Part shown: positions 4,596 through 21,126 of the stretch, in pieces
Layout: each line of letters begins with the position of its first letter
How positions within the stretch are numbered: position 1 is the first letter of the stretch
DNA from: Candidatus Krumholzibacteriales bacterium
Lineage (GTDB): Bacteria > Krumholzibacteriota > Krumholzibacteriia > Krumholzibacteriales > WJIX01
Direction: 5' to 3'
Length of the DNA: 64,000 bases
Assembly (NCBI GenBank): GCA_046483305.1
Contig: JAWODM010000014.1
Span: forward strand, 59,367 to 123,366
Notes under the pieces: generated by a model
Seen by the model: only the letters and a program-made list of their open reading frames with translations
Told to the model about the DNA's origin: nothing
The model's database searches: none
Program-made: the position numbers and the translations under genes

Positions 4596-5003
4596 GTGAC
4601 CGTATTCACCCATTTTTCTGCCGGGGCCCTGCTTGGCTATTTCTCTCCCGGGTTAGCTTTCGCCGCTTTCCTGGGGCTGTTGAGTCATCTGCTGCTCGAT
4701 TATCTGCCGCATTACGACTTTGAGAATGTATGGCTGGAAATATTATTGGGCTGCGCCGTTCTGGGCTTTCTTATAGCGGGCAGGAGCTGCACCGCTAATA
4801 TCTGTATGGGAGGACTGGTGGCGGTGCTGCCGGATGTGGAGAATCTGCTCTGGAAACTGGGAGCGATCAGGCGGGAGAGGCGGATATTTCCATCTCACAC
4901 CGGCCTGATACCCCACGGAAGGGAGGCCGGAAGACTCAATCTGGCGGCACAGGTTGTTTTCTCTGCCACTGTTGTTGGTTTCCTGCTTTGGAGTAATAAA
5001 TGA
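4596..5003 (+). CDS. YdjM-like membrane-bound metal-dependent hydrolase family protein
   Basis: Small polytopic membrane protein with FTHFSAG and SHLLLDYLPH motifs resembling the YdjM/DUF457 family. Its stop overlaps the next gene's start (ATGA at 5000-5003). Confidence 0.45.
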   Translation: MTVFTHFSAGALLGYFSPGLAFAAFLGLLSHLLLDYLPHYDFENVWLEILLGCAVLGFLIAGRSCTANICMGGLVAVLPDVENLLWKLGAIRRERRIFPSHTGLIPHGREAGRLNLAAQVVFSATVVGFLLWSNK

Positions 5004-8000
5004 AAAGATTAATGATCATAATACTTGTTTTTGCCGTATCCACCCCGGCGCTGAGCTCCGAGCCTCAGGTGAGGATTATAGATTCTGACGGCAGGGGAAT
5101 GGTTGTGGAGGTAACCAGCCCTCCTTACCGGAGAATCCCCGGGCCTGGCGGCCCGGCCAGCGGAGGAGAGATAATAGAAGTTCCCGGTTATGAATTGATT
5201 ATGGAAGAAGACAGGCCGGTGCTTCCTCGCCGCAGGCATCTGTTCTCGGTTGGTTCCGTCTCTGAGATAAAAGTAGAAGTTATTGAAACCGAAACGGAAA
5301 TAATTGAGGGCGCCAAACCTGCCATATTCCATTACGGTTTTGAAATCAATCAGAATTTATGGGAGGGGGCCGGAATCCTGCCCGAAAAGGATAACAGCTT
5401 TGTATTTCTCAGAAAAGCCGGACTATACAGGAAGAAACCCCTCGCCCTGGTAGAGGTCCGGCCGGTGATTTTCAATGAGGAAACGGGGCGGATGACATTC
5501 GCTTCCAGGATTTTATTCAGAATCTCTCACAGTTTCTCTGAGCCGGAAAGAGGAGCGGGCCTGCCCGGTTTCATACTGGGCGCAGGGGACGAAAGCCCCG
5601 TTTCGATAAGCAGGCCTGAAGCGCGGCATTCAGATTTCCAGTTTGGAGAATCAGATCAGTGGGTGAGGCTGGAAGTTCCGGAAACGGGGATATACAGGGT
5701 CGATTATGACGCCCTTCATGATAATGGAATAAACCTGATGGGGATCGATCCCTCCGGGATACGAATCTTCTCAGGGGGGCATTTCTCACAGAATACCAAT
5801 CTTTTTCAGCAGCCGGAGTCAGTCGTGGACGGGGGAAGTTTCAAACAGGATTACAGTATGTCCGAGCATGCCATAAGGCTGGTTGGGATGGAGGACGGCA
5901 CCTTCGATCCCGGCAACTATATTCTGTTCTTTGGCGTGGGAGTGGAAGGGTGGACTGATTATCTGGAACCTGAGGCGGAATCTCACGAACGTTACGACAA
6001 TCTCTACGAAAAGAATAATGTCTACTGGCTGAGCCTGGGAGGAAACTTCGCAGGCGAACCGGCCAGAATGGAATCTCTTGATACCGCCCCCTCCGGCAGC
6101 TCGCCGGAGAACACCATTGATTCCTATATCGAGAGGCTCCATCTGGAGGAGGACCGGGAATATTTCCCGCTTATCTCCGACGACAGATGGGTATGGGATT
6201 TCCTGGTATCCGGGGGGAATAAATCCACCAGAAAGGAATTCAGCGTTCATGATATCGTGAGCAGCGGCTGCAGAATCAGAACTATCGGTTTCGGGGGAAA
6301 GGACAGCGTAACCGACCTGGCCAGGTGTTATCTCAATGACGTCCTGGTGGGGGAAATGGCCTGGATCGGCTCCGACGGCAGTTTCAACCCCGATACCCTT
6401 GATGTCAACGTATCCTCACTCAGAGAGAGCAGCAACTACTTTGAATACCGGAAAACAGACAGCGGGATGGAGATGAATATATACTGGTATCAGGTTTTTT
6501 ACGAGAGGTACCTCAGGCCCGATCCCGATTCCGGAGATCTTGATTTTTCCGCTCCGGGCGCCGGCGGATCCACCCGTTTCATCCTCACGGAGTTTTTCGG
6601 AGAAGACCCATTTATCTTCGATGTTACCGACTATTACAATCCGGTATTACTGGAAGGAGCATATTCTTCCAATGATTCGGTGATCTTCGATTACGGGCTC
6701 GGCACATCTTCCGGGCATTTCATGGCGGTTACCCCTTCCGGCATAAAGGAACCCGGGATAGAGAATTCAGGCAGTATTCCTTCGTTGAGGGATGAACAGG
6801 CGCCTTCCTCCATGGTTGTGATATACCACGGCGCCTTCGAGGAAGCCGCTCTCGAGTATGTGGCGCACCGTTCCGGAAATAATTCTCCGGGTGTGATAAG
6901 GGCGGTGGATATAGACGATGTCTATAATAATTTCTCCGGCGGGCTGAAGGATCCCCTGGCAATAAGAAATTATCTGAAATACCTGTATGACAACTATTCA
7001 GAGGGCGGGGAACCGGCGATAGAATACGCCCTGCTGATGGGAAAGGGAACTTTCGATCCCAAGGATATCAAGGGGGCGGGGAAGGATTTCATTCCATTCT
7101 TCTACAGGACCGTGGGGGGATTTAATGTTTTCGTGGAATACGATGACTTCCTGGCCAGGCTGGACGACACCGGCGACGACTTCGTGGATATCGCCATGGG
7201 AAGGCTGCCCTTTCAGAATTCGCAGGGGGCGGGTAATTACATGGACAAGCTCCGGGGTTACGAAGCGGAAGATAACAACGGCGCCTGGAAGAATAAACTC
7301 ATATTCGTGGCCGACGATGAACATCAGGGAGACAGCCACACGCAGTTTGAGCATATGCAGCAGACCGAACGGATGAGTTCCAACGCAATTAAGCGGGATC
7401 ATTTCGATATCAGCGAAGTTTATCTTCACGAATATCCATTTGACGGTTCCACCAAACCGGAGGCCGCGGCGGCTCTCGCGGAGGAATGGAATGAGGGAGG
7501 TCTGCTGGTCTGTTATTTCGGACACGGTTCTCCATACCAGCTGGCGGACGAGCTGGTACTTAAGAAGTCAGATATATATTCTCTGAATAACGGTAACCGG
7601 CTGCCCCTGTTCCTGCCTCTTTCCTGTTCGGTGGGGGATCAGGAAAAGTTATATGATACATCCCTGTCGGAAGATCTGATCCTCGCCGAAGGAAGGGGGG
7701 CTATTGCCTCCATCGCGGCGGTGACCATAACACTGCCCACCTGGAATGAGGATATGTGCCGTCTCTTTCTGCTGAGGTTGTGGCCGGAGGGGACCCTTGA
7801 TTCCGAAACGGTGGGGAAGGCCCTGAGTTACGCTAAAATAAACAGCCTGACCGCGTATCCCTATATCCTTTCCGGCGACCCCTCCATGAAAATGGCAATG
7901 CCCGAGCTCAACGTCAGGCATGATTACTCCACCATCGACACCCTGGTTACCGGGTTCAGATACTCGGAGAGGGGTTCGGTAATGGTGGATGGCTCTCTTG

Positions 8001-8914
8001 ACCCCGGGTTCAACGGAACCGCCGAAATAATCGTTCGGGAAGCAGAAAAGCGGTTTGAAGTTAATAATTATGATTATAACCACGAGGGCGCGGTAATGTA
8101 CCGGGGAACCTCGGAGATAACCGGAGGTATATTCGATTTCCAGTTTGTAGTGCCTCTTCGCTGCAGGATAGGCGACCGGGCCAGGCTTAGAAGTTATGTC
8201 TACAGCGATGATTACCGTGACGGCGTGGGCGCCTGTGATACCCTCAGGATTATCCAGAATTCCACGCCTCCGGCAAACGACGGGCCTCCCAGAGTCAGCA
8301 TGTACTTCAACAATATGGCTACCAGGGTTAAAAAGGGCTCGCGGCTGTTTGTTGATATAGCTGATGATAACGGTATAGCCATACTGGGCAAGGATCCCCA
8401 GAATTCGATATTGCTGGAGTTCGATGACAGCGGATACCCCATACAGGTTACGGATTATTTCCAGTATGATCATAATTCATACACCAGCGGAGGGCTGGAA
8501 TACTCACTGAATGAGGATTTTGATATCGGAGACCACTCGGTTCTCCTGAGGGTATTCGACAATCTCGGGGAGATGTCGACCGATACCCTGAACTTCTCCA
8601 TAGTCGAAGAGGGGGTGCATAAGATAAGTGATGCCTTTAACTTCCCCAATCCGCTGAGTGAGAGCACCAATTTTGTCTTCCAGCTTACCTCGCCGGCGAA
8701 GGTGAAATTTGCGATTTATAATCTTTCCGGAAAGAAGATCTGGGAGAGAAGGATCAGCGCAGTGGAAGGATACAACAGCATTTACTGGGATGGAACGGAT
8801 TATGCGAATAATACTGTCGCTAACGGAACTTATATATACCTGATAGACGCGAAATTCCCCGGAACACTGGGACGAAACGAGAAAGTGAAGGGCAAGGTGG
8901 TAGTTCTCAAATAG
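5000..8914 (+). CDS. porU: PorU-like peptidase C25 (gingipain family) protein with T9SS C-terminal domain
   Basis: Signal peptide. C25-type catalytic dyad context: GHGSPYQ (~7520) followed by LPLSCSVGDQ (~7625). C-terminal ~85 aa (8657-8914) match the T9SS sorting-domain pattern (FNFPNPLSE...YNLSGKKI...NGTYIYLI). Sits immediately upstream of a PorV-like gene, the conserved PorU-PorV arrangement. Confidence 0.65.
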   Translation: MKRLMIIILVFAVSTPALSSEPQVRIIDSDGRGMVVEVTSPPYRRIPGPGGPASGGEIIEVPGYELIMEEDRPVLPRRRHLFSVGSVSEIKVEVIETETEIIEGAKPAIFHYGFEINQNLWEGAGILPEKDNSFVFLRKAGLYRKKPLALVEVRPVIFNEETGRMTFASRILFRISHSFSEPERGAGLPGFILGAGDESPVSISRPEARHSDFQFGESDQWVRLEVPETGIYRVDYDALHDNGINLMGIDPSGIRIFSGGHFSQNTNLFQQPESVVDGGSFKQDYSMSEHAIRLVGMEDGTFDPGNYILFFGVGVEGWTDYLEPEAESHERYDNLYEKNNVYWLSLGGNFAGEPARMESLDTAPSGSSPENTIDSYIERLHLEEDREYFPLISDDRWVWDFLVSGGNKSTRKEFSVHDIVSSGCRIRTIGFGGKDSVTDLARCYLNDVLVGEMAWIGSDGSFNPDTLDVNVSSLRESSNYFEYRKTDSGMEMNIYWYQVFYERYLRPDPDSGDLDFSAPGAGGSTRFILTEFFGEDPFIFDVTDYYNPVLLEGAYSSNDSVIFDYGLGTSSGHFMAVTPSGIKEPGIENSGSIPSLRDEQAPSSMVVIYHGAFEEAALEYVAHRSGNNSPGVIRAVDIDDVYNNFSGGLKDPLAIRNYLKYLYDNYSEGGEPAIEYALLMGKGTFDPKDIKGAGKDFIPFFYRTVGGFNVFVEYDDFLARLDDTGDDFVDIAMGRLPFQNSQGAGNYMDKLRGYEAEDNNGAWKNKLIFVADDEHQGDSHTQFEHMQQTERMSSNAIKRDHFDISEVYLHEYPFDGSTKPEAAAALAEEWNEGGLLVCYFGHGSPYQLADELVLKKSDIYSLNNGNRLPLFLPLSCSVGDQEKLYDTSLSEDLILAEGRGAIASIAAVTITLPTWNEDMCRLFLLRLWPEGTLDSETVGKALSYAKINSLTAYPYILSGDPSMKMAMPELNVRHDYSTIDTLVTGFRYSERGSVMVDGSLDPGFNGTAEIIVREAEKRFEVNNYDYNHEGAVMYRGTSEITGGIFDFQFVVPLRCRIGDRARLRSYVYSDDYRDGVGACDTLRIIQNSTPPANDGPPRVSMYFNNMATRVKKGSRLFVDIADDNGIAILGKDPQNSILLEFDDSGYPIQVTDYFQYDHNSYTSGGLEYSLNEDFDIGDHSVLLRVFDNLGEMSTDTLNFSIVEEGVHKISDAFNFPNPLSESTNFVFQLTSPAKVKFAIYNLSGKKIWERRISAVEGYNSIYWDGTDYANNTVANGTYIYLIDAKFPGTLGRNEKVKGKVVVLK

Positions 8915-9008
8915 TATCCTGAATCTTTCCGGGGAGCGGAATGTTTACTGCTTGACCGGGTAAGGTAACAATTATTATTTTAAGGTGGTATCAAAGAGAG
9001 GAAATGAT

Positions 9009-10007
9009 ATGAAAAAAATTACTGCAGCTTTGTTGTCAGTCTTAACAGCAATTCTTCTGATCCCCGCCGGCGATACCTTCGCTCAGGGACAGGCGGGAGC
9101 ATACTGTCTGAAGATAGCGCCCGGCGCAAGAGCTAATGGAATGGGTGGAAGCAGTGTGGCTATGGTCGAGGACGCTACCAGTCTCTGGTGGAACCCGGCC
9201 GGAATGTCCATGCTGGAATATTCAATGGCGGATATAATGCATACCAAACTGGTACCTACACTGGCCGCCGATGTTTTCTTTGAATATGCCGGCATAGTTC
9301 ACCACCTGGGTAGCGGGATCAGTGTGGGGTTCGCTTTTCAGTACCTCTCCTACGGCGAGTGGGTGGCCACCGATGAAGGCGGAGAAGAGCTCGGAAACGC
9401 CAGCAGTTACGAGATGTCTCCCATGGTAGGCGCCTCCATGAAACTGGGCGAGAATTTCAGCGTGGGTATGAACTTCAAGTTTGTATATATCGATCTGGCG
9501 CCGAAGTGGGCTACGGTGGAGGGAGAAGAAGGTGTGGGGCATTCCGTGGGCCTGGATATAGGATGCCTTTACAGGATCCCTGAATTCAGCTATGCCGGCT
9601 ACAGGGTAACCGGATTGCGGCTGGGAGCGGCCATATCCAACCTGGGGCCGTCCATTACCTATATCGACAGCGATCAGGCGGCCCCTCTGCCCCGGACCGT
9701 CAGGGTAGGGTTCGGTTATACCGCAGTCAGCAGCGAGCTGTTCGAGGTGAACGTGGCAGGTGACGTGGAAAGGCTGCTGATAGACGGAGATATCGATCCG
9801 ATATATCATGCCGGGAGTGAGTTCGTCTATACCGACCTTTTCGCGGTCAGAGTCGGTTATCTGTATGATAAGGACGGCGACGTCAAGGGTGTAAGCTACG
9901 GGCTGGGATTCAATATAAGCAACCGCATCAGGATTGATTACGGTAACGTTCCCCAGCATGAGGACCTTGACAGAGTGCACCGATGGTCACTGGGCCTTAA
10001 TTTCTAG
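9009..10007 (+). CDS. porV: PorV/PorQ-family T9SS outer-membrane shuttle protein
   Basis: Signal peptide, then the hallmark LKIAPGARANGMGGSSVAMVEDATSLWWNPAGM motif (GARxxGMGG...NPAG) of the PorV/LptO family. Size and composition fit a beta-barrel and the C-terminus is LNF. ATG at 9009 follows RBS GAGAGG. Confidence 0.7.
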   Translation: MKKITAALLSVLTAILLIPAGDTFAQGQAGAYCLKIAPGARANGMGGSSVAMVEDATSLWWNPAGMSMLEYSMADIMHTKLVPTLAADVFFEYAGIVHHLGSGISVGFAFQYLSYGEWVATDEGGEELGNASSYEMSPMVGASMKLGENFSVGMNFKFVYIDLAPKWATVEGEEGVGHSVGLDIGCLYRIPEFSYAGYRVTGLRLGAAISNLGPSITYIDSDQAAPLPRTVRVGFGYTAVSSELFEVNVAGDVERLLIDGDIDPIYHAGSEFVYTDLFAVRVGYLYDKDGDVKGVSYGLGFNISNRIRIDYGNVPQHEDLDRVHRWSLGLNF

Positions 10008-10033
10008 AATCCCCTGGAAAGGTTATTATTGAG

Positions 10034-13000
10034 TTGCGCTTAATTCGATATAGATGGTTATCTGCTGCGTTGCTACTGGTATCGTTAATCTTTCCGCGAA
10101 CCGGAAGCGCTTCGGACAAACTGCCGGTTCTGGAAAAACTCCCCTCGGGGAACCTGATCATAACGGGCCGCTACACGGCTGGCCGCCGGGAGAACTATCC
10201 GCGAAGAAGAAGGTTTAATTACGACCGGCCGTCCATGAGGGAATTCAAAAGGAGGGATGCCAGGCCTCCCCTTCGGTCTTCCGCGGAAGTATCCGGAACC
10301 CGGCACGTAGCCCTGATAAGAATAGGATTCAATACTGACCGGAAAGACGGCCTTTCCAGCCTGGATATAAATGCCGGCGAGGGTGGGTTTATCCTGGAGC
10401 CGGATCAAGACTGGATTATAGATCCCCCTCCGCATGACAGAGACTACTTTAACGCACATATGACCTGCCTGAGAAACTATTATCATGCTCAGTCCTGCGG
10501 CAGGCTCGATATTACCTGGGAAATATTCCCCGCCGCCGACAACAGCTGCTACAAGCTCTCCGACCTCGCCGATTACGGGCCCGGAAGCGGGATGTGGACA
10601 ACCGGCCAGCTGGTTGATTTTGTTCACGCCTCTCTGGATGTAGCCGATCCGGATGTTGACTATACCCGGTTCGATGCAGTGATTATAGCTCACGCCGGTC
10701 CAAATCTTCAGAGCGACGTAAACAATGATACCCCCAATGATGTCCCGTCATTCTTCGCCCGGCTGGGAGATGAAGACCGGTTTGAAACCGGCGACGGATT
10801 AATAATTACCGATTGTTCGGTAATTCCGGAGACCGGTATTCAGGATGGTTACTACTCCGGCATTTCGGCTGTTCTGGCCCATGAATTCGGCCATCAGCTG
10901 GGCCTTCCGGACCTGTACGATATTACCAGCGGCGGAACCGGCATAGGGATCTGGGGCAATATGGGAAGCGGCGGCCAGCTGGGAGTATCTCTGGGAGGGG
11001 AGCGGATAGACGGGATTATTCCTGCCGGCCTCAGCGCCTGGTCCCGGTACTACCTGGGATGGGTCGAGGCGGATACCGTGGAATCTTTCAGAGAGGCCAT
11101 GGAGATTCCCGCCGTGGAGAAGGTTCCGGCTGAGATAATAAGGATAGATATATCCAATGACGAATACTTTCTTATAGAGAACAGGTGCGTGGAGATTGAT
11201 CAGTATCTGACTCTCCTGATAGCCGACCAGGAAACCGGTGTGGTGCTGGGTGTCTACAACTGCAAAAACTGCACGGAAGAGAACATTTACGACGATGGAT
11301 TCATTTATGATCTTGAACTCTCCACCGAATATGACTGTCTTCTGCCGGTGGACCCGGATCTTCCCGCGGGGCCGTTTGACATTAAGCCTGATTTCGGGCC
11401 TGGCCTGCTGATATGGCACATAGACGAGAGGCTGATTGCGTCCAGGTGGGAGGATAACACGCTCAACAGCCGAGAACCATTCTCGATAAGGCTTATGGAA
11501 GCCGGGGGGGTTCTGGATATAGGCGATCCCACTTCGCCGCTCAGCTACGGCAATTACGATGACGCTTATTACCAGGGCAACAGCAATAGCTTTTCAGATG
11601 TGACCATACCCGGCGCGTGGAGTAATATGGGAGTCCCTTCGGGGGTGACGGTGGAGAATATCTCGGCCAGGGATACTGTGATGACTTTCGACGGAGGAAG
11701 AAGGGCGGTTCTTGAAGCGGGGAATATATTCGCCGATACGCTCCCTGCTGCCGAATGCCTGTTACCGGTGGGGAGCCAGCCCGGAATGCTGGCGGTTGAT
11801 CATCAGGGAAACGGCTGGCTGGACGGGATGCCATTCCCGGTTTTCAGCATTGGCTCTTCCCCGCTGCTTCCTTCTGCTTACGGGCCGGGTTTCGCGCTTG
11901 GCGGGGATGCGGTAATTATAGGAGATGCGGAAGGGTATATTCACGCGATTTCTATCTCAGACTGGTCTGAGGCTGGCGGGAACTGGCCGGTTGCCACCTC
12001 CGGATTGAGCGCATACCCGGTGGTTATGGAAATGGAAACAGGAATGGCGGTGGCGGCTGCGGATGAGGAGGGCAGAATTTCCGTGTTGAACAGCTCGGGC
12101 GTGGAAGAATATTCGTTTCAGCTGCCGTCAGGACAGGTAAACGCGGCTAACATTTCGGCTGTGGTCGATTCTGCGGGGCTTACCGGCCGGCTGATCTTCT
12201 TATCGGCGGGGGACAATTCGGTATACCTGTGGTGGTGGAATTTCATCCTCGGAGAGTCCGAATCCGTGAGACTTCCGGTTTCAGCTGATGAAGTATCGGG
12301 CGCCGCTGCACTGGCTGCCGGCGATATCCTGCCCGGGAAAACGGGTTTGGAGGTATATCTGACCGCTCTGCGGGCGGGAAAGATCTATCTCTGCTCCGCT
12401 GACGGGGTAATATTCGAGAGAGATCTCGGCCAGGGGGTCCAGCCCCCCGCGGTGGTGGATATCAACGGAGATACCGTTCTGGATATAGTAGTTACCGACG
12501 GAGAGTCCATATATGCCATCTCAGCTTCGGGGGCCAATCTTACCGGCTGGCCCAGGAAGATTAACGGCATGCATAATTTCCGGCGCAGGCAGAAGATAGC
12601 CGTTCCGGTTTCCGCTGTCGGAAGCGGAGGCGGGGCCAGGGTGATTGCCGTTTCGACGGACGGAATTATATTTACTCTGGATCACCGGGGGGAGCTGCTG
12701 GGCGGCGGCTATCCTGAAAGGATAGCCGGATCGGTAAGACAGGCGCCGCTATTTGTCGATATGGGCGGAGAAGGCGCTTTCGGTTTTATCGATGTCCTGG
12801 AGAACGGGACCGGAGAATATTACCAGAACAGGCCTGAGGCAATCAGAGTCAAATGGAGATCCGGGCCTTTCCGGCCGGATGAGATAGCGACTTCCTGGTT
12901 CGGCTCAAGCGCTGATGCAATGCGAAGATCGTTTGCGACTGGAGTGGGTAGATGGAGCAGCCCCTCGGCGAATTGGGCCGCCATGGACGATAACCTGATA

Positions 13001-13258
13001 ATTTATCCGAACCCGGTTGAGGGGGGAAGGGCCGGTTTTCAGTTCAGGGCTCCTTCCGGATCTCACGCTTCTCTGATGGTATTCAATATTTCCGGAGAGA
13101 TCGTGCTCCAGAGGGAAAAGAGGTGTGAGGGAGGAGAGGAACATGAAATACCGGTACAGCTGTCCGGCACCGGTTCCGGGGTTTACATCGCCCGCCTGGT
13201 GATTACCTCCGGAGGAAGAAGCTTCAAGACACTTAAGAAATTTGCTGTAGTAAATTAA
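10034..13258 (+). CDS. M6/immune-inhibitor-A-like zinc metalloprotease with FG-GAP repeats and T9SS C-terminal domain
   Basis: Signal peptide. HExxH zinc site VLAHEFGHQLGLPDLYD (HEFGH at 10880-10894). Downstream FG-GAP/VCBS-like repeats (VVDINGDTVLDIVVTDGES). C-terminus IIYPNPVEGG...MVFNISGEIV...GVYIARLV fits a T9SS sorting domain. Confidence 0.7.
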   Translation: MRLIRYRWLSAALLLVSLIFPRTGSASDKLPVLEKLPSGNLIITGRYTAGRRENYPRRRRFNYDRPSMREFKRRDARPPLRSSAEVSGTRHVALIRIGFNTDRKDGLSSLDINAGEGGFILEPDQDWIIDPPPHDRDYFNAHMTCLRNYYHAQSCGRLDITWEIFPAADNSCYKLSDLADYGPGSGMWTTGQLVDFVHASLDVADPDVDYTRFDAVIIAHAGPNLQSDVNNDTPNDVPSFFARLGDEDRFETGDGLIITDCSVIPETGIQDGYYSGISAVLAHEFGHQLGLPDLYDITSGGTGIGIWGNMGSGGQLGVSLGGERIDGIIPAGLSAWSRYYLGWVEADTVESFREAMEIPAVEKVPAEIIRIDISNDEYFLIENRCVEIDQYLTLLIADQETGVVLGVYNCKNCTEENIYDDGFIYDLELSTEYDCLLPVDPDLPAGPFDIKPDFGPGLLIWHIDERLIASRWEDNTLNSREPFSIRLMEAGGVLDIGDPTSPLSYGNYDDAYYQGNSNSFSDVTIPGAWSNMGVPSGVTVENISARDTVMTFDGGRRAVLEAGNIFADTLPAAECLLPVGSQPGMLAVDHQGNGWLDGMPFPVFSIGSSPLLPSAYGPGFALGGDAVIIGDAEGYIHAISISDWSEAGGNWPVATSGLSAYPVVMEMETGMAVAAADEEGRISVLNSSGVEEYSFQLPSGQVNAANISAVVDSAGLTGRLIFLSAGDNSVYLWWWNFILGESESVRLPVSADEVSGAAALAAGDILPGKTGLEVYLTALRAGKIYLCSADGVIFERDLGQGVQPPAVVDINGDTVLDIVVTDGESIYAISASGANLTGWPRKINGMHNFRRRQKIAVPVSAVGSGGGARVIAVSTDGIIFTLDHRGELLGGGYPERIAGSVRQAPLFVDMGGEGAFGFIDVLENGTGEYYQNRPEAIRVKWRSGPFRPDEIATSWFGSSADAMRRSFATGVGRWSSPSANWAAMDDNLIIYPNPVEGGRAGFQFRAPSGSHASLMVFNISGEIVLQREKRCEGGEEHEIPVQLSGTGSGVYIARLVITSGGRSFKTLKKFAVVN

Positions 13259-13268
13259 GGGAGTCAGG

Positions 13269-14264
13269 ATGTCAAGAGCAGGAAAGCGCATCACGGCGGC
13301 AGCGGTTCTGATACTGTTTCAGGCGGCCGGAAATTTCTCGGAGGCAGAAGGCAGCGGCCTTCTGACGGCTCCTTCCAGTCTGAAACTTTCCCATTCCGAA
13401 AGAATCGAAAGCAGAAGGAACGAAAGACTGGTCTCAATATTCGATCAGAACAGAGATTTCAGAATCGCCTCCGGCGGCAGCTCGGAGGAGGCCCTTCGCC
13501 TCAACGGGGAAAGGATTCTTTCTCCCGGTATGGTGGCACCTGACAGGGATTCCGGGCCATACACCGCTGCCGGCAGGAGAAAAAGGAATATGGCGATATC
13601 GATTATCGGCTCGGCCCTGCTTCCCGGGCTGGGCGAGATGTATATGTATTCCAGAACCGGAGAAAAATCGATCCTTGGCCGGGCTCTGGGGTTTATCGCG
13701 TTCGAAGCGTACCTGTGGTACGGATATTTGCACAATCACGACAGGGGCAAGGATTTCAAGCGTCAGTACGAAGAATACGGCGACGCTCACTGGAGCCAGG
13801 AAAGGTTCCTTCAGAACCATCCGATCTGTTATACTACCTTTCAGGGGGGGTGCGACAGCTGGCAGCAGTACAATGAGATAGGTTCAGATGATCACTCTTC
13901 AGAATATTTCTATTTCTTCTATACCGCCAAAGAGGTGGACAGGGAGGAATATTACGAGAATATGGGCAAATACGATGCCTTCCTCTACGGCTGGGACGAC
14001 TGGAACGGGGAGTACCTGCACGAGGGGGGAGAGCCCAACTACTGGACCCCTCATAGAACGTATTACTGGGACCTTCGGGGAGAGAGTAATAAATACCTGC
14101 TCAGGGCGGATTACCATGTAATGGGAATGATCGCGGCCAGGGTTGTTTCGATGGTCCAGGCCGGATGGATAGCCCACAACCGGGGGTCAGCGCCGGAGGA
14201 ATGGTCTCTGGAGATAGACAAATCACCCCTGGATTACAGATGCAGCATTAACTACAGGTTTTAG
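13269..14264 (+). CDS. hypothetical secreted protein, LPGLGE-motif family, paralog A
   Basis: Signal peptide. Central IIGSALLPGLGEMYMY...GRALGFIAFEAYLWYGY segment and a Y/E/W-rich region, ending INYRF. Shares architecture and motifs with the next gene. Confidence 0.5.
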   Translation: MSRAGKRITAAAVLILFQAAGNFSEAEGSGLLTAPSSLKLSHSERIESRRNERLVSIFDQNRDFRIASGGSSEEALRLNGERILSPGMVAPDRDSGPYTAAGRRKRNMAISIIGSALLPGLGEMYMYSRTGEKSILGRALGFIAFEAYLWYGYLHNHDRGKDFKRQYEEYGDAHWSQERFLQNHPICYTTFQGGCDSWQQYNEIGSDDHSSEYFYFFYTAKEVDREEYYENMGKYDAFLYGWDDWNGEYLHEGGEPNYWTPHRTYYWDLRGESNKYLLRADYHVMGMIAARVVSMVQAGWIAHNRGSAPEEWSLEIDKSPLDYRCSINYRF

Positions 14265-14278
14265 GGAGGAGATAGAAT

Positions 14279-15154
14279 TTGCGTAAAATATTTGTTTTCA
14301 TAACAGTGATTTTCCTGCCGGTAAACCTGTTTTCCTCATCTCTTTCCATGGACCCGGCGCCGGTCCCTGAACCGGAACAGAAAAGGTCGGTTTTCAGAAG
14401 TTCATATTCGATAGGCGGTTCCGGCTCAGGTGGCATCAGGCTCTCTCTGGCCGGCAGGGAAGGGATCAAATTACAGCTCCTGAGCGCCAGGCGGGGCTAT
14501 GGCTTTGACGGCACCTTTGAACCCGGCAGCCGTGATTATTCCACAGGAGGGATTATAGCCCGCAATGTGCTTCTGCCCGGACTGGGCCAGCGGAAGATGG
14601 GACAGAGAATGCGCTCCCGGATATATTTTTTCCTGGAAGGAGCCGCCTGGGTGGGACTGGGCACGTTCTTCTGGCAGAAAATGGCCAGGACCGGCGCGTA
14701 CGAGGAGTACGCGGTGGCCTACGCCGGTGTGGAAGAAAAAGGGCTTTCAGAGGATTACTATGAGACCATCGGCAATTTCATGAGCAGCGACGGCCCGGGC
14801 GGGTATAACGAATATGTTATGAGAGAAGCCAGGGACCTTTACTACCCCGACCAGGAGGCCATACAGGACTATTATGAGGCCAATGCTCTGACTGGCGACC
14901 AGTCCTGGAGATGGCTTTCCGAGAGTACCTATGACAAATATAATTCACTCCGCAAGGGAGCAAACAGCTCCGAGAGAAGGGCGGTTTATTCCCTGTTCTT
15001 TATGCTGGGATTGAGGCTGATCAGCAACATCGATGCGGTCAGGTCTATTATGACCGATGAAGGAGATCAGGAGCAGGCCGGACAGGGCGGGGCAGCCATA
15101 GATATTCATCAGAACGGGGAAGGTATTTCCGTCGTTCTGAAACGGCCCTTCTGA
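14279..15154 (+). CDS. hypothetical secreted protein, LPGLGQ-motif family, paralog B
   Basis: Signal peptide. IIARNVLLPGLGQRKMG...LEGAAWVGLGTFFWQ segment, DYYE/YYP-rich region and C-terminal Phe. Paralogous to 13269-14264. Confidence 0.5.
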   Translation: MRKIFVFITVIFLPVNLFSSSLSMDPAPVPEPEQKRSVFRSSYSIGGSGSGGIRLSLAGREGIKLQLLSARRGYGFDGTFEPGSRDYSTGGIIARNVLLPGLGQRKMGQRMRSRIYFFLEGAAWVGLGTFFWQKMARTGAYEEYAVAYAGVEEKGLSEDYYETIGNFMSSDGPGGYNEYVMREARDLYYPDQEAIQDYYEANALTGDQSWRWLSESTYDKYNSLRKGANSSERRAVYSLFFMLGLRLISNIDAVRSIMTDEGDQEQAGQGGAAIDIHQNGEGISVVLKRPF

Positions 15155-15210: not shown

Positions 15211-16122
15211 ATGCGGAAATTACACCGGTTGATTCTATTGTTAATTTTTGTTCCGGCGGCGGTTCATGCCGCCGTGCAGGAGGAAGAGCCTGCTGCCGGG
15301 GATTATCCGAATATAGTGGAAGCTGATTCGGTTCTTGCCGGGCTGAAGGAACCGCTGGGAATCTCCGCCGGGGCCCGCGGCGGGATATATGTGGCCGACG
15401 GGATGAGCGGCAAACTTTTCAAATATATGGCCGGCCGGGAAGTTCTCGAATTTCCGGTGCCCCGGTCGCTTGTTTCGATATATCCGGTTGATGTGGCGGC
15501 CGGAGCGGACCCCTTTATATATGTACTGGATTACTCCTCCGGGAATGTACTAAGATACGACTACAGGGGAGGATATCTGGATGTACTTATATCGTTCGAT
15601 GATTTCAAGCCCTCTTCAATATCGGCGGGAGCGGGAGGGAGCTTTATTCTGACAGATATGGAGAATCATTCGGTCCTGGTACTCAATCCCCTCCTGGACA
15701 GAGAGGTGGAGATAGAGGGTTACGGCTGGGAAGCGGGCTTTTTCAATAAACCGGCGAAAGCTGTAATACTGCGGGACGGGAGGCTGGCGGTTGCCGATAC
15801 CGGCAACCGGAGAGTGCAGATATTTTCGTCCTCGGGCCTCTATCTGAGGCAGTTATCCCCGCCGGACAGCCTTGGCTTCAAATCTCCAAGGTCGCTCTGC
15901 TGCGGCCCGGAGGGAAATATATTCGTTGCCGATACCGGGAGGGGTTCGGTTTTTGCCTACTCGCCCGGAGGGGAATATATCACCGCGATAGATTCCTATT
16001 CGGGAAAGAAAATATCGCCTTCCGCCCTCACTGTCGATCTGAATGATAACCTTTTCGTTGCCGATCTGCTTTCCAGGTCGATTCTCATATACAGGCTTGT
16101 TTATCCGGACAATGAGCGATGA
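15211..16122 (+). CDS. NHL-repeat beta-propeller protein, secreted
   Basis: Signal peptide. Repeated VADTGNRRVQIFSSSG and VADTGRGSVFAYSPGGEY segments typical of NHL repeats. Confidence 0.65.
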   Translation: MRKLHRLILLLIFVPAAVHAAVQEEEPAAGDYPNIVEADSVLAGLKEPLGISAGARGGIYVADGMSGKLFKYMAGREVLEFPVPRSLVSIYPVDVAAGADPFIYVLDYSSGNVLRYDYRGGYLDVLISFDDFKPSSISAGAGGSFILTDMENHSVLVLNPLLDREVEIEGYGWEAGFFNKPAKAVILRDGRLAVADTGNRRVQIFSSSGLYLRQLSPPDSLGFKSPRSLCCGPEGNIFVADTGRGSVFAYSPGGEYITAIDSYSGKKISPSALTVDLNDNLFVADLLSRSILIYRLVYPDNER

Positions 16123-19100
16123 AGCGTTACTCCCTTTCTATTATTATCATGGTTGTATTCACCCTCGCGCCTCTGCGGGCAAATCCGCTCGCGGAGCCGG
16201 GAAGAGGTCCGGTTTCGAGTAAGTCTTTTATCCTTTCGCCGGGCCAGAGCCGTATCGATACCGGCATATCTTTCATAAAACCGGGTTCCGATTCCCTTAT
16301 CATTGACGGCAGGGAAATCGAAAGGGGTGCCGGATACCGGATCAGTTCCCTCAGCGGGGTGATTATCCTGAACAACCCCGCTGAAGGCGGAGAGATGGCG
16401 ATCCTGTATTACAGCAGGTTCCATTTCCCCTTTCCCCCAGTGATGGCGAGAAGGTTCCCCGGAACCGGGGAGGCGCCTTTCAGAACTCCCCTCGCGGATA
16501 CTGCGGCGCTGTTCAGCAGTAAGAAAATTAATCCCTACCGCCTCAACGTTTCGGCCAGCAAATCGGTGGGATTCTCGGTAGGTTCCGCGAGAGGGGTGGG
16601 GATAGATCAGAGCCTGAGAGTGACCATTGCTGGAAAACTTGCCGAAGACCTGGAGGTCAAGGCGTTCCTTTCCGATGACGACCTGCCGGTACAGCCGGAA
16701 GGGAACACCGAGGAGCTCAAACGCCTGGACCGGATATCCATAAATATCAGGAGCAGGCATACCGAAGTAAAGCTCGCCGATTTTGCCTCCTCCCTGGACT
16801 GGTCCGTCTTTTCTTCCTTCGACAGGGAGCTCAGGGGAGGGGAGATTACGGTAAAAGCGGCCGGTCAGCGTTTCATGACAGGCGGAGGCATAGCCAAGGG
16901 CAGGTTTGAAACTATCAACATCACGGGGCGCGAAGGCGTTCAGGGCCCCTACCAGCTTCTGTCCGCCCGGAGGTTCAACGGAGTAATAGTGATTCCGGGT
17001 TCAGAGTCTGTATACCTGAATGGCAAATTAATGAAGAGAGGCCAGGAGAACGATTATGTCATAGATTACAACAGGGCGTCGGTTGCCTTTACCGAGAGAG
17101 TGCCGGTAACCGACGATTCGGAAATCGTAATAGAATTCCAGAAGGGCGAGAGCAATTACGAGCGGAATACCTTCATGGGGGGATGGTCCGCCCCCCTCCG
17201 GGAAGGCGCTGTCAATATCAGGGCCTTCTTCCTGACCGAGAGCGATGATAAGGACTCCCCTCTGGCCGGAGAGTTTACCGACGAGGAGATTTCAGCCCTG
17301 GCGGCGGCGGGAGACAACCCTGACAGCGCCTTTGCGTCCGGGGTGGAGAAGACAGATGAAGGGGGCAGCGGCTACATCTATTCGGAGGCGGATTCATATT
17401 TCGTGTTTGTAGAATCAGGCGCTGAATACCAGCTGGATTTCTACAAAGCCGCAGGCGGGGGGGATTATGATACCGACGGGTTTTCTTCCAGCGGAGAGCT
17501 GAAGTACCGTTACGTTGGCGAGGGAGAAGGGGATTACAGAATAGGCAGGCGGCTCCCCCTTCCTGAAAGGAAGGATCTGGTGGCGGTATCCGCCGATGCC
17601 GGGTCCGATCATCTCTTTCTGAGGGCGGAAGGAGATTTCAGCAGGCATGACAGGAATACCCTGTCCGGGCTCGATGACGGCGACAACAACGGGGCCGCCT
17701 ATACAGTGGAGGGGGGCCTGAGAGGGTTCGATTTTCTGGAATCAACCCTCAATCTGAAAGGAAGTTACTCATCGCTGGAGAGCTCGTTTGCCGCTCCCGA
17801 CCGGGTCCGCAGGGCCTATTTCTACAGGAACTGGAACCTGGAGGGAGTAGAGCTTGAAGGAAGGGAGAATATATCGGGCCTGAAGCTGAACTGGGAAAGG
17901 GACCGGTGGTGGAAGCTGGAAGGGAGCTACAGCAGGTTGACCCGAACCGGTGGGACCTCTGCGGGACGGGGGCGGGCTGAGGGAGAACTGGGGAATCCGG
18001 AAAACAGGGGGTTAAGGTTCCAGTGGCTGAGAACGGAGAACTCCGACCGGAGAAAACGGGAATTCGCTCTGGCGAAAGGGGTGTTTGCGATGTGGAAGCT
18101 GGTTCCGGGGATTACCCTGGACCGGGAGAGGTACCGGAGTTTCAGCCCCGCGGGGGCGGATACCGGAAGGTATTACAGGCAGGGAAAAATCTTTCTGGGA
18201 ACCCGGGATCTGAAAGGTTTCGATGCAGGTATCTCTTTCAACCGCAGGCTTACCGATAACCTGAGAGAGAGCGGCGGCGCGTGGTTCAGGGCCAGGGAGA
18301 ACGACGAGATTATTTTGAACGGTTCATACTCCGGTGGAACCAGGATGATAGATTTCTTTCTGAGCCACCGGGAGAGCGATGAGATAGAGTCTGGAAGCTC
18401 CAGCACCTTTGACCTGGCCAGGATCAAGTACCGGGATTCATACAGGCCGCTGGGGGTCGCTACCGACATCGGCTACAGGATCACTTCCGGCGAGGAGAGA
18501 AGAAGAGAAAGAGCTGTTATCTTCGTGGGAGAGAATCAGGGAGATTACGATGAAGAAGGCAACGAAGTGGGCCAGAAGAGGGGCGACTATATGCTTGTGT
18601 ACATCCCCGGAACGGGTACCGAAGGGGTCAGGACGGTTGAGCTGAACTGGAAGCTGAGCTTCGGGGATGGAATCAGGGGGTTCGGTTCAATGACGGATGA
18701 GGATGGCGGCCTGTTCAACCTGATAAAGAAGAATGTATCCCTGGACCAGATATTCTCTCTTTCCGAAAAATCAACCACCGATGAACTCTTCCGGCTCTAC
18801 ATCATGGATCCCGATCTTCTTCAGAGGGATGACGTGACGGTTGAAGGGTACAACCGGCTCAGGCAGGAATGGAACTTCCTCAGGGACGTCAGGAAGTACA
18901 ACCTCGGTTTTACCTTCTCCAGGGAGGACAGGGAGGATAACAGGACTGAAGGGGCTTCATCCAGCAGCTATCTCAGGGAGATGAGGCTTAAATCGGAGTA
19001 TTTGCCGGTTCCCTCACTGAGCATATCCCTGGAAGGAACCAGGACGGACAGAAGCAGTATTTCTGATAACAGGGCGGTACAGAGCTACGATATCCTCGCC

Positions 19101-19487
19101 TATACCCTCTCCAGCGCTCTCGGCTACAGGAGAGGGCCCAACGCCCGTTTCTCGGTGGAATTCTCCGGGCAGGACAGGGAGGATTACCTCTCAGAGTCCA
19201 GGCAGAATTCGTATTCATTCAAACCTTCAGCCAGCATCTCTCCGGCCGGGGATATAAACATAAGGACTTTCTACAAGTTTACCTACACAGATGTGAAGAA
19301 CGACGGGGGGCAGCCCCTGTTCTTCCTGGAGGAGGGGGTAAGGCAGGACTGGAACATCTTCAGCCGTTACCAGGTGGGAAAGCACATAAGCGTGGGACTT
19401 AACTATACCGGCAGAAGGGAAAAGGATTTCAGGGAGGAGGTGAAGACTGTCCATGCGCTCAAGGTTGAAAGCAGGGCTTATTTTTAG
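16119..19487 (+). CDS. large (1122 aa) hypothetical outer-membrane-type protein
   Basis: Cleavable signal peptide. Composition rich in alternating R/E/D/G/S/Y typical of beta-barrel proteins. C-terminal ESRAYF with terminal Phe. Start overlaps the upstream stop (ATGA). No family recognised by eye. Confidence 0.5.
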   Translation: MKRYSLSIIIMVVFTLAPLRANPLAEPGRGPVSSKSFILSPGQSRIDTGISFIKPGSDSLIIDGREIERGAGYRISSLSGVIILNNPAEGGEMAILYYSRFHFPFPPVMARRFPGTGEAPFRTPLADTAALFSSKKINPYRLNVSASKSVGFSVGSARGVGIDQSLRVTIAGKLAEDLEVKAFLSDDDLPVQPEGNTEELKRLDRISINIRSRHTEVKLADFASSLDWSVFSSFDRELRGGEITVKAAGQRFMTGGGIAKGRFETINITGREGVQGPYQLLSARRFNGVIVIPGSESVYLNGKLMKRGQENDYVIDYNRASVAFTERVPVTDDSEIVIEFQKGESNYERNTFMGGWSAPLREGAVNIRAFFLTESDDKDSPLAGEFTDEEISALAAAGDNPDSAFASGVEKTDEGGSGYIYSEADSYFVFVESGAEYQLDFYKAAGGGDYDTDGFSSSGELKYRYVGEGEGDYRIGRRLPLPERKDLVAVSADAGSDHLFLRAEGDFSRHDRNTLSGLDDGDNNGAAYTVEGGLRGFDFLESTLNLKGSYSSLESSFAAPDRVRRAYFYRNWNLEGVELEGRENISGLKLNWERDRWWKLEGSYSRLTRTGGTSAGRGRAEGELGNPENRGLRFQWLRTENSDRRKREFALAKGVFAMWKLVPGITLDRERYRSFSPAGADTGRYYRQGKIFLGTRDLKGFDAGISFNRRLTDNLRESGGAWFRARENDEIILNGSYSGGTRMIDFFLSHRESDEIESGSSSTFDLARIKYRDSYRPLGVATDIGYRITSGEERRRERAVIFVGENQGDYDEEGNEVGQKRGDYMLVYIPGTGTEGVRTVELNWKLSFGDGIRGFGSMTDEDGGLFNLIKKNVSLDQIFSLSEKSTTDELFRLYIMDPDLLQRDDVTVEGYNRLRQEWNFLRDVRKYNLGFTFSREDREDNRTEGASSSSYLREMRLKSEYLPVPSLSISLEGTRTDRSSISDNRAVQSYDILAYTLSSALGYRRGPNARFSVEFSGQDREDYLSESRQNSYSFKPSASISPAGDINIRTFYKFTYTDVKNDGGQPLFFLEEGVRQDWNIFSRYQVGKHISVGLNYTGRREKDFREEVKTVHALKVESRAYF

Positions 19488-21126
19488 TCTGATGCTGTTT
19501 GCGCCGTCAGTTCTGAATGCCGGGCGGGCGGCCAGGGTGGAATATGCCGGTATCGACCTTCTTGATACCGGAAAGCTGAAGGCGGATTCCTACCTGAAGG
19601 AAGGCGGGCGGTTTTCCGATTCGCTTCTTTCCATGGAATTGCAGAGGCTCGATTCGCTCTATTTCAATATAGGTTACCCCGGAGCGGTTATTGATGCCGA
19701 TACCGCCGCCAGTGGCGATCAGTACCTGATAACCATATCGGTAAGCGAAGGCGGGCAGGCCAGTTTCGGTAAAGTCGCTGTTGCGGGTGATAACCCTGTT
19801 GAGGAAAAGGGAGGGATTTACAGCCTGAAGCGGGGCGAAGATTTCCTCCCCGGGAGAGTGGAAGAGGCCATGAAATTTACCCTTTTCTCGATGAACAGGG
19901 CCGGATTCCCCTATGCCCAGGTATGGATCACCGGATTCGACTATATCCGGGCCGATAATTCGGTGGATATATCCTTTTCCGTAGTTACCGGCGAGCGGAT
20001 GACGGCCTCGGAGGTGGTATTCGAAGGGATTTCATCCACCGACACCTCCACCGCCATGATAGCTTCGGGTTTCAGGAAGGGCAGGGAGTATGACGAAAAG
20101 ATGCTGATCTCGGTCAGAAACCGCCTGGAGGCGAGCGGCCTTTTCGAAGAGGTTCTCCCCGGAAGGGTAATCCGCAGGAGCAAAGGGGAGGTTGCCCTGG
20201 TGTTTCCGGTCAGGGAACAGGAGAGAAGAAACCTCTTCCGGGGGGCTTTCGGATTCTCCCGGAAGCAGAACGATGAATACGAAGTTAACGGGAATGTGGA
20301 ACTTGAGCTTAATAATATAGCGGGGACGGGCAGGGGGGCTGAATTCACCTGGATAAACGACGGCAGGGATTATTCCAGGACAGAGGTGAGCTATCTGGAA
20401 CCGTTTCTTTTCTCCAGGAACCTGTCCCTGGAAACCTCCCTGAGGCAGATTGTCAGGGATTCCCTCTACAATATGAGCAGCGGGAGCCTGAGGTTCAGGG
20501 CGCCTTTCGGCCCGGCCGGATTCAGGCTGTCGGTTTCCGCCTCCGCTGACAGGATCGTAATCCAGAACGACGTCGATCTGAGCAGGAGTTTCAGGCAGAG
20601 ATACGGCCTGGGCCTTGAGAAGAGTAGCGGTTCATATCTGAGGTTCGAGACCTCGCTGGAGGGAGGGCTCAGGAACAGTTACTACAAATTCCGGGATGAC
20701 GAGTCTGTCTGGCAGCTGCTGTATAACATTGAGGCCACCTCTGAGATGCCGACTTTCCGGGGCCAGAGCGCTTATCTCAGGGTGGTATCCGAGGGGATAT
20801 TCAGCGGTGGAGAAATACACCCGGCGGAGCTGTTTTCGGTGGGGGGAGCGAGATCGATCAGAGGCTACCGGGAGAACCAGTTCAGGGCCGAGCGGGCGTC
20901 CTACCTCAATCTGGAATACCGGCTGGGAAGAACCAGCAGGGTATTCCTGTTCAACGATACGGGGGTTATTTACCGAGAGGATACCGGCTGGGAGTTCAGG
21001 AACGGCGCAGGATTCGGCATAAGGTCGGTATCAGCGGTAGGAATCATCGAGCTGAGCTTCGGAATGGCGGAGCGCTTCTCCCTGGACGCCGCCAGAATAC
21101 ATGTGTCGCTGGTGGAGAGTTTCTAG
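19453..21126 (+). CDS. Omp85-family (BamA/TamA-like) outer-membrane protein with POTRA domains
   Basis: Signal peptide. N-terminal POTRA-like repeats. C-terminal surface-antigen barrel with FSVGGARSIRGYRENQF motif and terminal VESF. Overlaps the upstream gene by 35 nt. Confidence 0.65.
   Translation: MRSRLKAGLIFSLMLFAPSVLNAGRAARVEYAGIDLLDTGKLKADSYLKEGGRFSDSLLSMELQRLDSLYFNIGYPGAVIDADTAASGDQYLITISVSEGGQASFGKVAVAGDNPVEEKGGIYSLKRGEDFLPGRVEEAMKFTLFSMNRAGFPYAQVWITGFDYIRADNSVDISFSVVTGERMTASEVVFEGISSTDTSTAMIASGFRKGREYDEKMLISVRNRLEASGLFEEVLPGRVIRRSKGEVALVFPVREQERRNLFRGAFGFSRKQNDEYEVNGNVELELNNIAGTGRGAEFTWINDGRDYSRTEVSYLEPFLFSRNLSLETSLRQIVRDSLYNMSSGSLRFRAPFGPAGFRLSVSASADRIVIQNDVDLSRSFRQRYGLGLEKSSGSYLRFETSLEGGLRNSYYKFRDDESVWQLLYNIEATSEMPTFRGQSAYLRVVSEGIFSGGEIHPAELFSVGGARSIRGYRENQFRAERASYLNLEYRLGRTSRVFLFNDTGVIYREDTGWEFRNGAGFGIRSVSAVGIIELSFGMAERFSLDAARIHVSLVESF

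Follow-up and report, generated by a model that had tools for sequence, protein, structure and literature searches.

The nine open reading frames at 4596-21126, all on the + strand, are read here, with an even chance of being right, as an envelope operon that is conserved, probably co-transcribed and composed of parts with different evolutionary ranges. They lie in a 64,000-nt stretch (the window), positions 59,367 to 123,366 of JAWODM010000014.1 (GCA_046483305.1) from a Candidatus Krumholzibacteriales MAG. Their coordinates agree with those of the first-pass annotation, and its two ATGA start/stop overlaps (5000-5003 and 16119-16122) and 35-nt overlap between the giant-barrel and Omp85 genes (19453-19487) were all verified. 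From the gene of a 135-aa protein to the Omp85 gene, the intergenic gaps are -4, 70, 26, 10, 14, 56, -4 and -35 nt. The earlier description of gaps of 0-56 nt or overlap was accurate except between porU and porV, where the gap measures 70 nt if porV starts at its GTG and 94 nt if it starts at the ATG at 9009. An N-terminal signal peptide was identified in each of the eight proteins encoded between porU and the Omp85 gene, both included.

A sigma-70-like promoter candidate lies upstream of the array at 4266..4295 (+ strand; TTGACC, 18-nt spacer, TATAAT; 11 of 12 consensus positions); it is the best match in the scanned region, and a consensus match only. The first strong terminator-like hairpin downstream is located at 22273..22304 (+ strand; 12-bp stem with 10 G-C pairs, again a consensus-type match only), between the array side and a convergent subtilase gene and within 21127-30504, a stretch absent from related genomes. 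No strong terminator-like hairpin was found in the array before this site, and terminator-like sites inside the block were not enriched (15 found versus 17.8 expected from shuffled sequence). Judging from the sequence, the array is probably co-transcribed. Since nearly all long open reading frames of the 64-kb window are on the + strand, except at 21.7-30.5 kb, little weight can be put on co-directionality by itself; it is the conservation of gene order, together with overlaps that recur in distant genomes, that goes beyond chance.

Two small genes occupy the 5′ edge. A tenth small gene, the first after accA and located between accA and the 135-aa gene, encodes a Trm112p-like zinc-ribbon protein (4404..4574, + strand; 56 aa from ATG; PF03966 E = 8.8e-11). 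It has the same position in loci L087 and L088 and probably falls outside the envelope function. The 135-aa hydrophobic protein (4596..5003, + strand), whose stop overlaps the porU start (ATGA), is also kept upstream of porU in L087 and L088. Its designation as a YdjM-like inner-membrane hydrolase is unproven, as PF04307 scored 13.6 bits (cutoff 29; E = 0.049) with only 29 residues aligned.

PorU, the T9SS C-terminal signal peptidase/sortase (5000..8914, + strand), was identified at equivalog level (NF033707, 543.5 bits, cutoff 420) and is of the canonical type, scoring 176 bits on the PorU2 model. Its Peptidase_C25 domain (~6812-7894; E = 2e-70, profile positions 1-374) bears out the C25 peptidase assignment, and it carries its own CTD at ~8642-8866 (TIGR04183, 27.2 bits, cutoff 23, residues 1215-1282) in a C-terminus of the Por_Secre_tail/FlgD_ig type (FlgD_ig 28 bits, cutoff 27). 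The adjoining gene (8985..10007, + strand) encodes an outer-membrane barrel of the PorV/PorQ family (NF033709, 210 bits, cutoff 90; PF19572 E = 3.7e-22). The first-pass name PorV therefore stands at family level and not at equivalog level, where the protein scored 146 bits on the PorV model NF033710 (cutoff 250) and 79 bits on the PorQ model (cutoff 220); its position beside porU favours PorV. This porU-porV adjacency is ordinary.

An M6-like metalloprotease-fold protein follows (10034..13258, + strand). It retains an intact HEFGH motif at 10880-10894 (residue 283), and its M6 domain was detected by PF05547 (39.4 bits, cutoff 22; E = 5.5e-10) in an alignment confined to the motif region, with TIGR03296 at 86 bits, under the cutoff of 110.8. 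A T9SS type-A CTD at ~13001-13255 (TIGR04183, 27.4 bits, cutoff 23) completes the architecture originally proposed for this gene. The protein was rejected as a member of NF052323, an inactivated M6-like family, given its score of 233 bits (cutoff 600) and intact motif. Orthologs retain HExxH in 13 of 15 cases; in the remaining two, from L005 and L011, the motif is degenerate and NF052323 scores are 552 and 537 bits. The loss makes the role of dedicated cargo protease, as first suggested, doubtful as the conserved one.

The next two genes encode parA (13269..14264, + strand; LPGLGE at 13620-13637) and parB (14279..15154, + strand; LPGLGQ at 14573-14590). An AF2 model of parA has pLDDT >90 over residues 101-304, and the protein is laid out as a signal peptide, a disordered linker, a helical domain and a C-terminal hairpin with a final F; the C-terminal residue of parB is likewise F, as in 16 of 16 orthologs. 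Single-sequence BLASTP detected no similarity between the two (E = 0.08). Comparison of their family profiles by hhalign gave a probability of 99.4% (E = 8e-22), and by these profiles they are true distant paralogs, as had been claimed. PF18935 (DUF5683) did not match parA or parB of the window even at E <= 10. It was matched at E <= 0.1 by 15 of 31 aligned family members (best E = 1.4e-6), and parB orthologs in L005 and L006 have weak or faint precomputed matches. The pair thus resembles a divergent DUF5683-like branch.

The last three genes form a distinct trio. The secreted NHL-repeat beta-propeller (15211..16122, + strand; PF01436 E = 1.1e-22), recognised as such from the outset, carries a signal peptide that lacks a lipobox cysteine, and its stop overlaps the next start (ATGA). 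The 1122-aa protein that follows (16119..19487, + strand) was modelled as a closed membrane barrel of ~40 strands (pLDDT 82), in agreement with its initial description as an outer-membrane-type protein. It has a signal peptide, the invariant loop motif PVQPEGNTE at 16686-16712 and a terminal F, conserved in 81 of 88 homologs. Sequence comparison with Pfam, NCBIfam and the PDB gave no match. Identification with the SprA/Sov translocon was not supported by sequence matches to TIGR04189, SprA_N or the solved SprA chain, and neither OstA/LptD domains nor likeness to solved LptD was found. Clustered at 50% identity, the family forms ~5,100 clusters, with all lengths close to 1,130 aa.

The terminal gene encodes an Omp85-family protein of 557 aa (19453..21126, + strand) with the POTRA region (E = 3e-12; 47.5 bits, cutoff 21.3), loop-6 motif (IRGY at 20857-20868, residue 469) and C-terminal aromatic residue (F) of the Omp85 superfamily. 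The [VIL]RG[YFW] motif and terminal F are kept in 37 of 38 orthologs. The barrel domain scored 23.6 bits, just below the cutoff of 24, and a ShlB match was also weak. Both BamA POTRA3-5 and TamA align with the POTRA region. As BamA the protein fails on TIGR03303 (93 bits, cutoff 297), with POTRA3-5 alone aligning. The earlier label POTRA-bearing Omp85/TamA-like holds for the POTRA, the loop-6 motif and the short layout of ~three POTRA domains; it does not hold for TamA itself (NF047950, 34 bits, cutoff 625), and the neighbouring large gene is not TamB-like.

The PorU-to-Omp85 block recurs at no fewer than 14 loci, whose labels are Krumholzibacteriota, Latescibacteria, Zixibacteria or unclassified, the stretch from the LPGLG paralogs to Omp85 being syntenic with porUV. 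The full order PorU-PorV-M6-parA-parB-NHL-giant barrel-Omp85 is present in L003, L004, L006, L012, L014, L015, L017, L019, L028, L087 and L088; L016 has the set with no parB match, the block is cut off at PorV in L005 and L011, and L018 has the block without M6. Block members share 23-50% identity across loci, and the gene after Omp85 varies by clade (thiC, ligA-dinG or ubiA). Because identity drops to 23-30% while the flanks differ, the block is not a chance adjacency. Overlaps of 1-4 nt between the NHL and giant-barrel genes recur in distant loci, and seven other loci share the overlap of exactly 35 nt between the giant-barrel and Omp85 genes. Within Krumholzibacteria, accA and thiC on the flanks are conserved as well, and vertical inheritance alone therefore accounts for some of the synteny.

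The giant-barrel and Omp85 genes are paired in 35-38 of 88 loci, and the NHL gene adjoins the giant-barrel gene in 33-35 of 88. Among these are loci of KSB1, Calditrichia and Zixibacteria that have the trio but no porUV within 10 kb. In Ignavibacteria and Bacteroidota the giant-barrel gene stands alone, with neither an Omp85 nor an NHL gene adjoining, so that a dedicated insertase is either not universally needed or encoded elsewhere. The family ranges across the FCB group, including the cultivable Flavobacteriia Tenacibaculum, Lutibacter and Aureibaculum, and Melioribacter. As the trio occurs without porUV and the giant barrel occurs alone, the block is composite. Its link to T9SS would then be one of lineage-specific co-expression, which does not in itself imply functional dependence on T9SS, and the proposal of a single module attached to T9SS is not supported.

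In the composite operon, the first part would be a T9SS end-station set in which PorU acts as sortase/CTD peptidase, PorV as outer-membrane shuttle barrel, and the M6-fold CTD protein would itself be a T9SS substrate. Since some lineages can do without its catalytic motif, the conserved role of the latter is probably that of a retained surface accessory. The second part would be the two paralogous DUF5683-like proteins, presumed helical membrane proteins. The third would be an older three-gene outer-membrane module, in which the Omp85 and propeller most likely assemble or partner the giant barrel: the short Omp85, with ~three POTRA domains, may serve as insertase with the ~40-strand barrel as its client, and the NHL propeller, presumably periplasmic, would assist or stay bound. 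In Krumholzibacteriota and relatives this module appears to have been joined to porUV, such that the components would be made together. The giant barrel may also be in physical or functional contact with PorU/PorV.

A substantial, though minority, likelihood is given to the trio being general outer-membrane biogenesis machinery, handling lipids, lipoproteins or other envelope material with no specific tie to T9SS, and its adjacency to porUV an operon of convenience. The loci lacking porUV fit this account, as do the great size and even length of the family, which would suit a core component of the envelope. In five loci the trio follows pyrH-frr, the neighbourhood of bamA in Proteobacteria, and in Ignavibacteria and Melioribacter 2-4 LolC/E-like MacB_PCD+FtsX permease genes are directly upstream of the barrel gene. 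However, the LolC/E adjacency is confined to a single clade, where synteny extends to unrelated housekeeping genes, domain searches detected no substrate- or lipid-handling domain, and the porUV-to-Omp85 order survives at 23-30% identity while the flanks change, longer than unselected adjacency usually does.

The remaining proposals are less probable. The propeller, ~40-strand barrel and short Omp85 could constitute an unrecognised FCB outer-membrane machine, the barrel being a conduit or platform with PorV/PorU or in the export of surface lipoproteins or other material, and the link being kept in the Krumholzibacteriota operon and scattered in Bacteroidota; we consider this unlikely. More doubtful still is a T9SS sub-machine made up of the whole block, with the barrel serving T9SS as conduit or docking platform, be it as another SprA-like translocon or as the anchor of PorV-PorU attachment complexes. 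The least credible reading is a two-partner-secretion-like pair in which a TpsB-like Omp85 exports the 1122-aa protein to the surface. A weak ShlB/FhaC match on the Omp85 barrel (PF03865, 25.5 bits) and the tight, overlapping arrangement of the two genes speak for it, but the confident model of the putative TpsA is a closed membrane barrel, its C-terminal F is of the OMP type, no TPS domain, haemagglutinin domain or beta-helix was found in it, and the POTRA alignment is with BamA POTRA3-5 and not with the two-POTRA layout of TpsB. The composite operon is the preferred reading.

To our knowledge, T9SS is understood almost solely from work in Bacteroidota, and the block reveals the arrangement of its end-station genes in candidate phyla deep in the FCB group. 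Of greater importance is a family of giant outer-membrane barrels that is very large, uniform and unnamed, and that comes in older lineages with an Omp85 and a propeller of its own. Should the barrel prove to have a definite role in export or assembly, it would add a component to FCB outer-membrane biogenesis, known to be incomplete. Its role is open to genetics in existing model organisms.

In Bacteroidota T9SS, PorU is the sortase and PorV the shuttle, with PorQ and PorZ as partners in P. gingivalis. The block shares with the Bacteroidota porU-porV pair an equivalog PorU with its own CTD and a PorV/PorQ-family barrel directly after it. It differs in that the PorV-like protein is under the PorV equivalog cutoff, the block has neither a PorZ nor a PorQ gene, and the genes that follow are those of the M6-like CTD protein, the two DUF5683-like proteins and the NHL/giant-barrel/Omp85 trio. 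No published description of the PorU-to-Omp85 arrangement was found in a literature search, in line with its having been called undescribed; the M6-like CTD companion of PorU/PorV-like genes, in contrast, is already represented in NCBIfam by NF052323 (M6-like inactivated), NF052324 (PorU2) and NF052325 (PorV2). From their names and consecutive numbers, we infer that these models derive from one gene neighbourhood. That set also combines an M6-fold CTD protein with PorU-like and PorV-like proteins, whereas in the window the M6 protein (233 bits) keeps HEFGH, PorU is canonical and PorV scores 42 bits on PorV2. The giant barrel is, like SprA/Sov, the 36-strand T9SS translocon, a very large single-chain FCB outer-membrane barrel encoded or acting near PorV. 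As in TAM (TamA-TamB), the Omp85 is short with ~three POTRA domains and its gene overlaps that of a very large partner, but this partner is a predicted outer-membrane barrel and not an inner-membrane-anchored TamB/AsmA-like protein; having no lipobox, the Omp85 is also not TamL-like in the sense of Bacteroidota. With BamA-BamB the block shares the pairing of a POTRA Omp85 with a periplasmic beta-propeller, but BamB is an 8-bladed lipoprotein, while the propeller of the block is of the NHL-repeat type without a lipid anchor and its Omp85 scores well below the BamA cutoff (93 versus 297 bits).

The nine-gene block at 4596–21126 on the + strand, which encodes a 135-aa protein, PorU, PorV, an M6-like protein, two LPGLG proteins (parA and parB), an NHL propeller, a predicted 1122-aa giant barrel and an Omp85 protein, is real and under selection, yet composite. 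An ORF scan of the window returned all nine + strand ORFs at exactly the coordinates claimed in the first-pass annotation, together with its two ATGA overlaps (5000–5003 and 16119–16122) and its 35-nt overlap at 19453–19487. The successive gaps are -4, 70, 26, 10, 14, 56, -4 and -35 nt; the claimed spacing of 0–56 nt fails at porU-porV, where the gap is 70 nt with a GTG start or 94 nt with an ATG at 9009. Co-directionality is uninformative here because nearly all long ORFs of the window lie on the + strand, the exception being 21.7–30.5 kb. The best promoter-like site of the region was located at 4266–4295 (consensus match at 11/12 positions) and the first strong terminator-like hairpin at 22273–22304; shuffled sequence yields terminator-like sites at least as often as the block does. 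A tenth small gene, absent from the earlier list, sits between accA and the gene for the 135-aa protein; it encodes a Trm112p-like zinc ribbon (4404–4574; PF03966, E = 9e-11), and two of the compared loci, L087 and L088, have it in this position too. Between dnaE and accA lies a 261-aa ORF (2463–3248) whose coding sequence shares 32 nt with the end of dnaE; it matched no Pfam or NCBIfam family, its sole hit being YjbH at 12.6 bits.

A protein with 100% identity places the window in a Krumholzibacteriales MAG. The gene-neighbourhood comparison proposed in the first-pass annotation was carried out by tblastn and ORF analysis on 88 loci with barrel homologs; lineage labels of loci and homologs are record titles and may be imprecise. 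The block through Omp85 does recur with porUV. The full order PorU-PorV-M6-parA-parB-NHL-barrel-Omp85 was observed in 14–15 loci assigned to Krumholzibacteriota, Latescibacteria (without M6), Zixibacteria SM23_81, "Fibrobacteraceae" and unclassified lineages, with barrel identity down to 23–30% and varying downstream flanks (thiC, ligA-dinG or ubiA). The last three genes also occur without porUV: in a second tier of loci from KSB1, Calditrichia, Zixibacteria and unclassified MAGs, NHL-barrel-Omp85 or barrel-Omp85 was found with no porUV within 10 kb, following pyrH-frr in five loci. A third tier, in Ignavibacteria and Bacteroidota, contains the barrel gene alone, flanked in Lutibacter by ogt and glyS. 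Across loci the NHL/barrel overlaps are conserved at 1–4 nt, and seven further loci reproduce the 35-nt overlap of the barrel and Omp85 genes exactly.

In Melioribacter and its relatives, the barrel gene is immediately preceded by 2–4 LolC/E-like permease genes and followed by housekeeping genes. Such tandem MacB_PCD+FtsX genes occupy 7362–9826 of the L036 locus, with equivalents in other loci of Melioribacter and other Ignavibacteria (L034, L038, L050, L051, L053, L055, L060, L070, L075, L085). These neighbours may point to a connection with lipoproteins or lipids, or may be only clade-level synteny; a surface-lipoprotein exporter role drawn from them is speculation only, as the synteny is confined to one clade. 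In Melioribacter and Calditrichaceae (L036, L053, L054), apparent PorU matches by tblastn close to the barrel gene were rejected, the ORFs being too short at 442–573 aa; they look like the T9SS C-terminal domains (CTDs) of unrelated cargo proteins and not like porU linkage.

The PorU identity proposed earlier was upheld by NF033707 (543 bits, cutoff 420), by Peptidase_C25 (E = 2e-70) and by the protein's own CTD, and judged by sequence this PorU is canonical. The PorV identity stands at the level of the PorV/PorQ family model, which was passed, but its score is under the PorV equivalog cutoff. The M6 protein with a T9SS tail was recovered; its 1074 residues include HEFGH at residue 283 and a T9SS CTD of type A. 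On the model of its NCBIfam relative, the "T9SS-dependent M6-like inactivated metalloprotease", it reaches 233 bits, where the cutoff is 600. HExxH is retained in 13/15 orthologs and is degenerate in those of loci L005 (ALLFGH) and L011 (AKLFGH), which score 552 and 537 bits, respectively, on the inactivated-metalloprotease model. Because these two orthologs are without HExxH, the conserved role of the M6-like protein is probably not proteolysis. In L005 (block at 987–8052), a Peptidase_MA_2/Tricorn/PD40 gene of ~1010 aa lies between the two DUF5683-like genes; L011 (712 to about 7800), the other distant version of the block, has the same parA-parB spacing, but no such gene is annotated there. 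Such a gene beside a degenerate M6 may replace the catalytic function. The name "YdjM-like" given to the 135-aa protein is unproven, the match amounting to only 13.6 bits.

The proteins encoded by parA (13269–14264) and parB (14279–15154) are paralogs as claimed: their ortholog profiles align over 193 columns (99.4% probability, E = 8e-22), while BLASTP of one against the other gave no similarity (E = 0.08). Half of the aligned family members match DUF5683. In the AF2 model of parA, a signal peptide is followed by ~80 disordered residues, then by a confidently predicted helical domain containing three hydrophobic helices, and at the C-terminus by a beta-hairpin of low confidence with F as the final residue; no structural relatives of parA were found in the PDB. 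Terminal F is present in 16/16 parB and 11/15 parA orthologs. A predicted beta-hairpin with terminal F at the end of otherwise helical proteins, in parA, parB and their orthologs, resembles an OMP beta-signal and might dock onto Omp85 or the barrel by strand augmentation.

The NHL protein is secreted and has no lipobox. The protein encoded at 19453–21126, described as a POTRA-bearing Omp85/TamA-like barrel, is an Omp85 whose POTRA domains align to BamA POTRA3–5; it has loop-6 IRGY and terminal F, and its scores are far under both the BamA and the TamA equivalog cutoffs. Pfam and NCBIfam searches with the 1122-aa protein (16119–19487) found nothing up to E = 10, and no PDB chain matches it in sequence. 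Its AF2 model, built from a 26-sequence alignment (pLDDT 82, pTM 0.72), predicts ~40 long beta-strands, two small beta-domains and an OMP-type C-terminal F, a residue present in 81/88 homologs. The most conserved sequence feature is the invariant loop PVQPEGNTE (residues 190–198; 16686–16712), which holds several of the few invariant residues of that alignment (identity down to 23%) in a low-confidence, non-strand region of the model; the loop is a candidate site for function or for binding a partner. At 50% identity the family comprises 5120 clusters at E ≤ 1e-3, 3549 at 1e-10 and 2405 at 1e-30; fragments aside, the 150 clusters listed span 1,050–1,240 aa. At least 584 hits were obtained in a species-representative genome collection. 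Homologs occur, by record title, in Krumholzibacteriota, Latescibacteria, Zixibacteria, KSB1, Calditrichia, Ignavibacteria/Melioribacter, Chloroherpetonaceae, Balneolales and many Bacteroidota; the Bacteroidota-type relatives (at least 5,955) are all labelled "hypothetical protein", with no other name and no Pfam domain.

Since the wider order accA-trm112-135aa-block-thiC is conserved in Krumholzibacteria, the stretch at 21127–30504 is inserted here when compared with related genomes, which are without it and have thiC directly after the Omp85 gene. On the - strand it carries a 159-aa ORF that matched no family (21771–22250), a convergent S8 subtilase gene (22314–29678) whose 2454-aa product has MAM-like and CarboxypepD_reg domains plus a T9SS CTD, and the gene for a 256-aa GEVED-domain protein (29734–30504). 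The stretch has the look of a T9SS cargo island that was inserted. No further T9SS core genes were found among the window ORFs scanned up to 48.9 kb; farther downstream, these ORFs code for hut enzymes, TPR, PHP and ECF proteins, a receptor of the TonB type and type IV pilus proteins. The pilus set (43100–48884) consists of a PilB-like T2SSE protein with MshEN, a PilT-like protein and a PilC-like T2SSF protein, followed by a PilS-like histidine kinase.

The earlier suggestion of a module attached to T9SS is borne out insofar as the block is conserved; the attachment itself is not general, as the NHL/giant-barrel/Omp85 trio is an independent module of wider range, found without porUV, and the barrel is its most widespread part. 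Adjacent porU and porV are the usual arrangement for T9SS, and the M6-like CTD companion is already represented in NCBIfam models. The best-supported reading, with about an even chance of being correct, is that the short Omp85 and the propeller would assemble or partner the giant barrel, and that in Krumholzibacteriota and allied lineages the trio would be co-expressed with T9SS end-station genes and the two DUF5683-like membrane proteins. The main rival, a serious but less probable one, takes the trio as general outer-membrane biogenesis machinery and the porUV link seen in the full-order loci as an operon of convenience. That the giant barrel is instead a direct T9SS conduit or platform is unlikely and has no sequence or specific structural support, and two-partner secretion is very unlikely given the barrel predicted for the 1122-aa protein.

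The claim that no such case has been described agrees with the literature searched, itself incomplete, in which no paper was found on the block, the trio or the barrel family and nothing relevant on DUF5683, PorU2/PorV2, T9SS in these phyla or giant barrels. There is an appreciable chance that the block exposes an outer-membrane machine that has gone unrecognised in the FCB group. Known systems that come closest include the PorU/PorV attachment genes and the NCBIfam M6i/PorU2/PorV2 set. SprA resembles the giant barrel in size class only, and BamA-BamB shares the combination of an Omp85 with a propeller. TAM likewise pairs a short Omp85 with one large partner, but the partner here is a barrel and not TamB.
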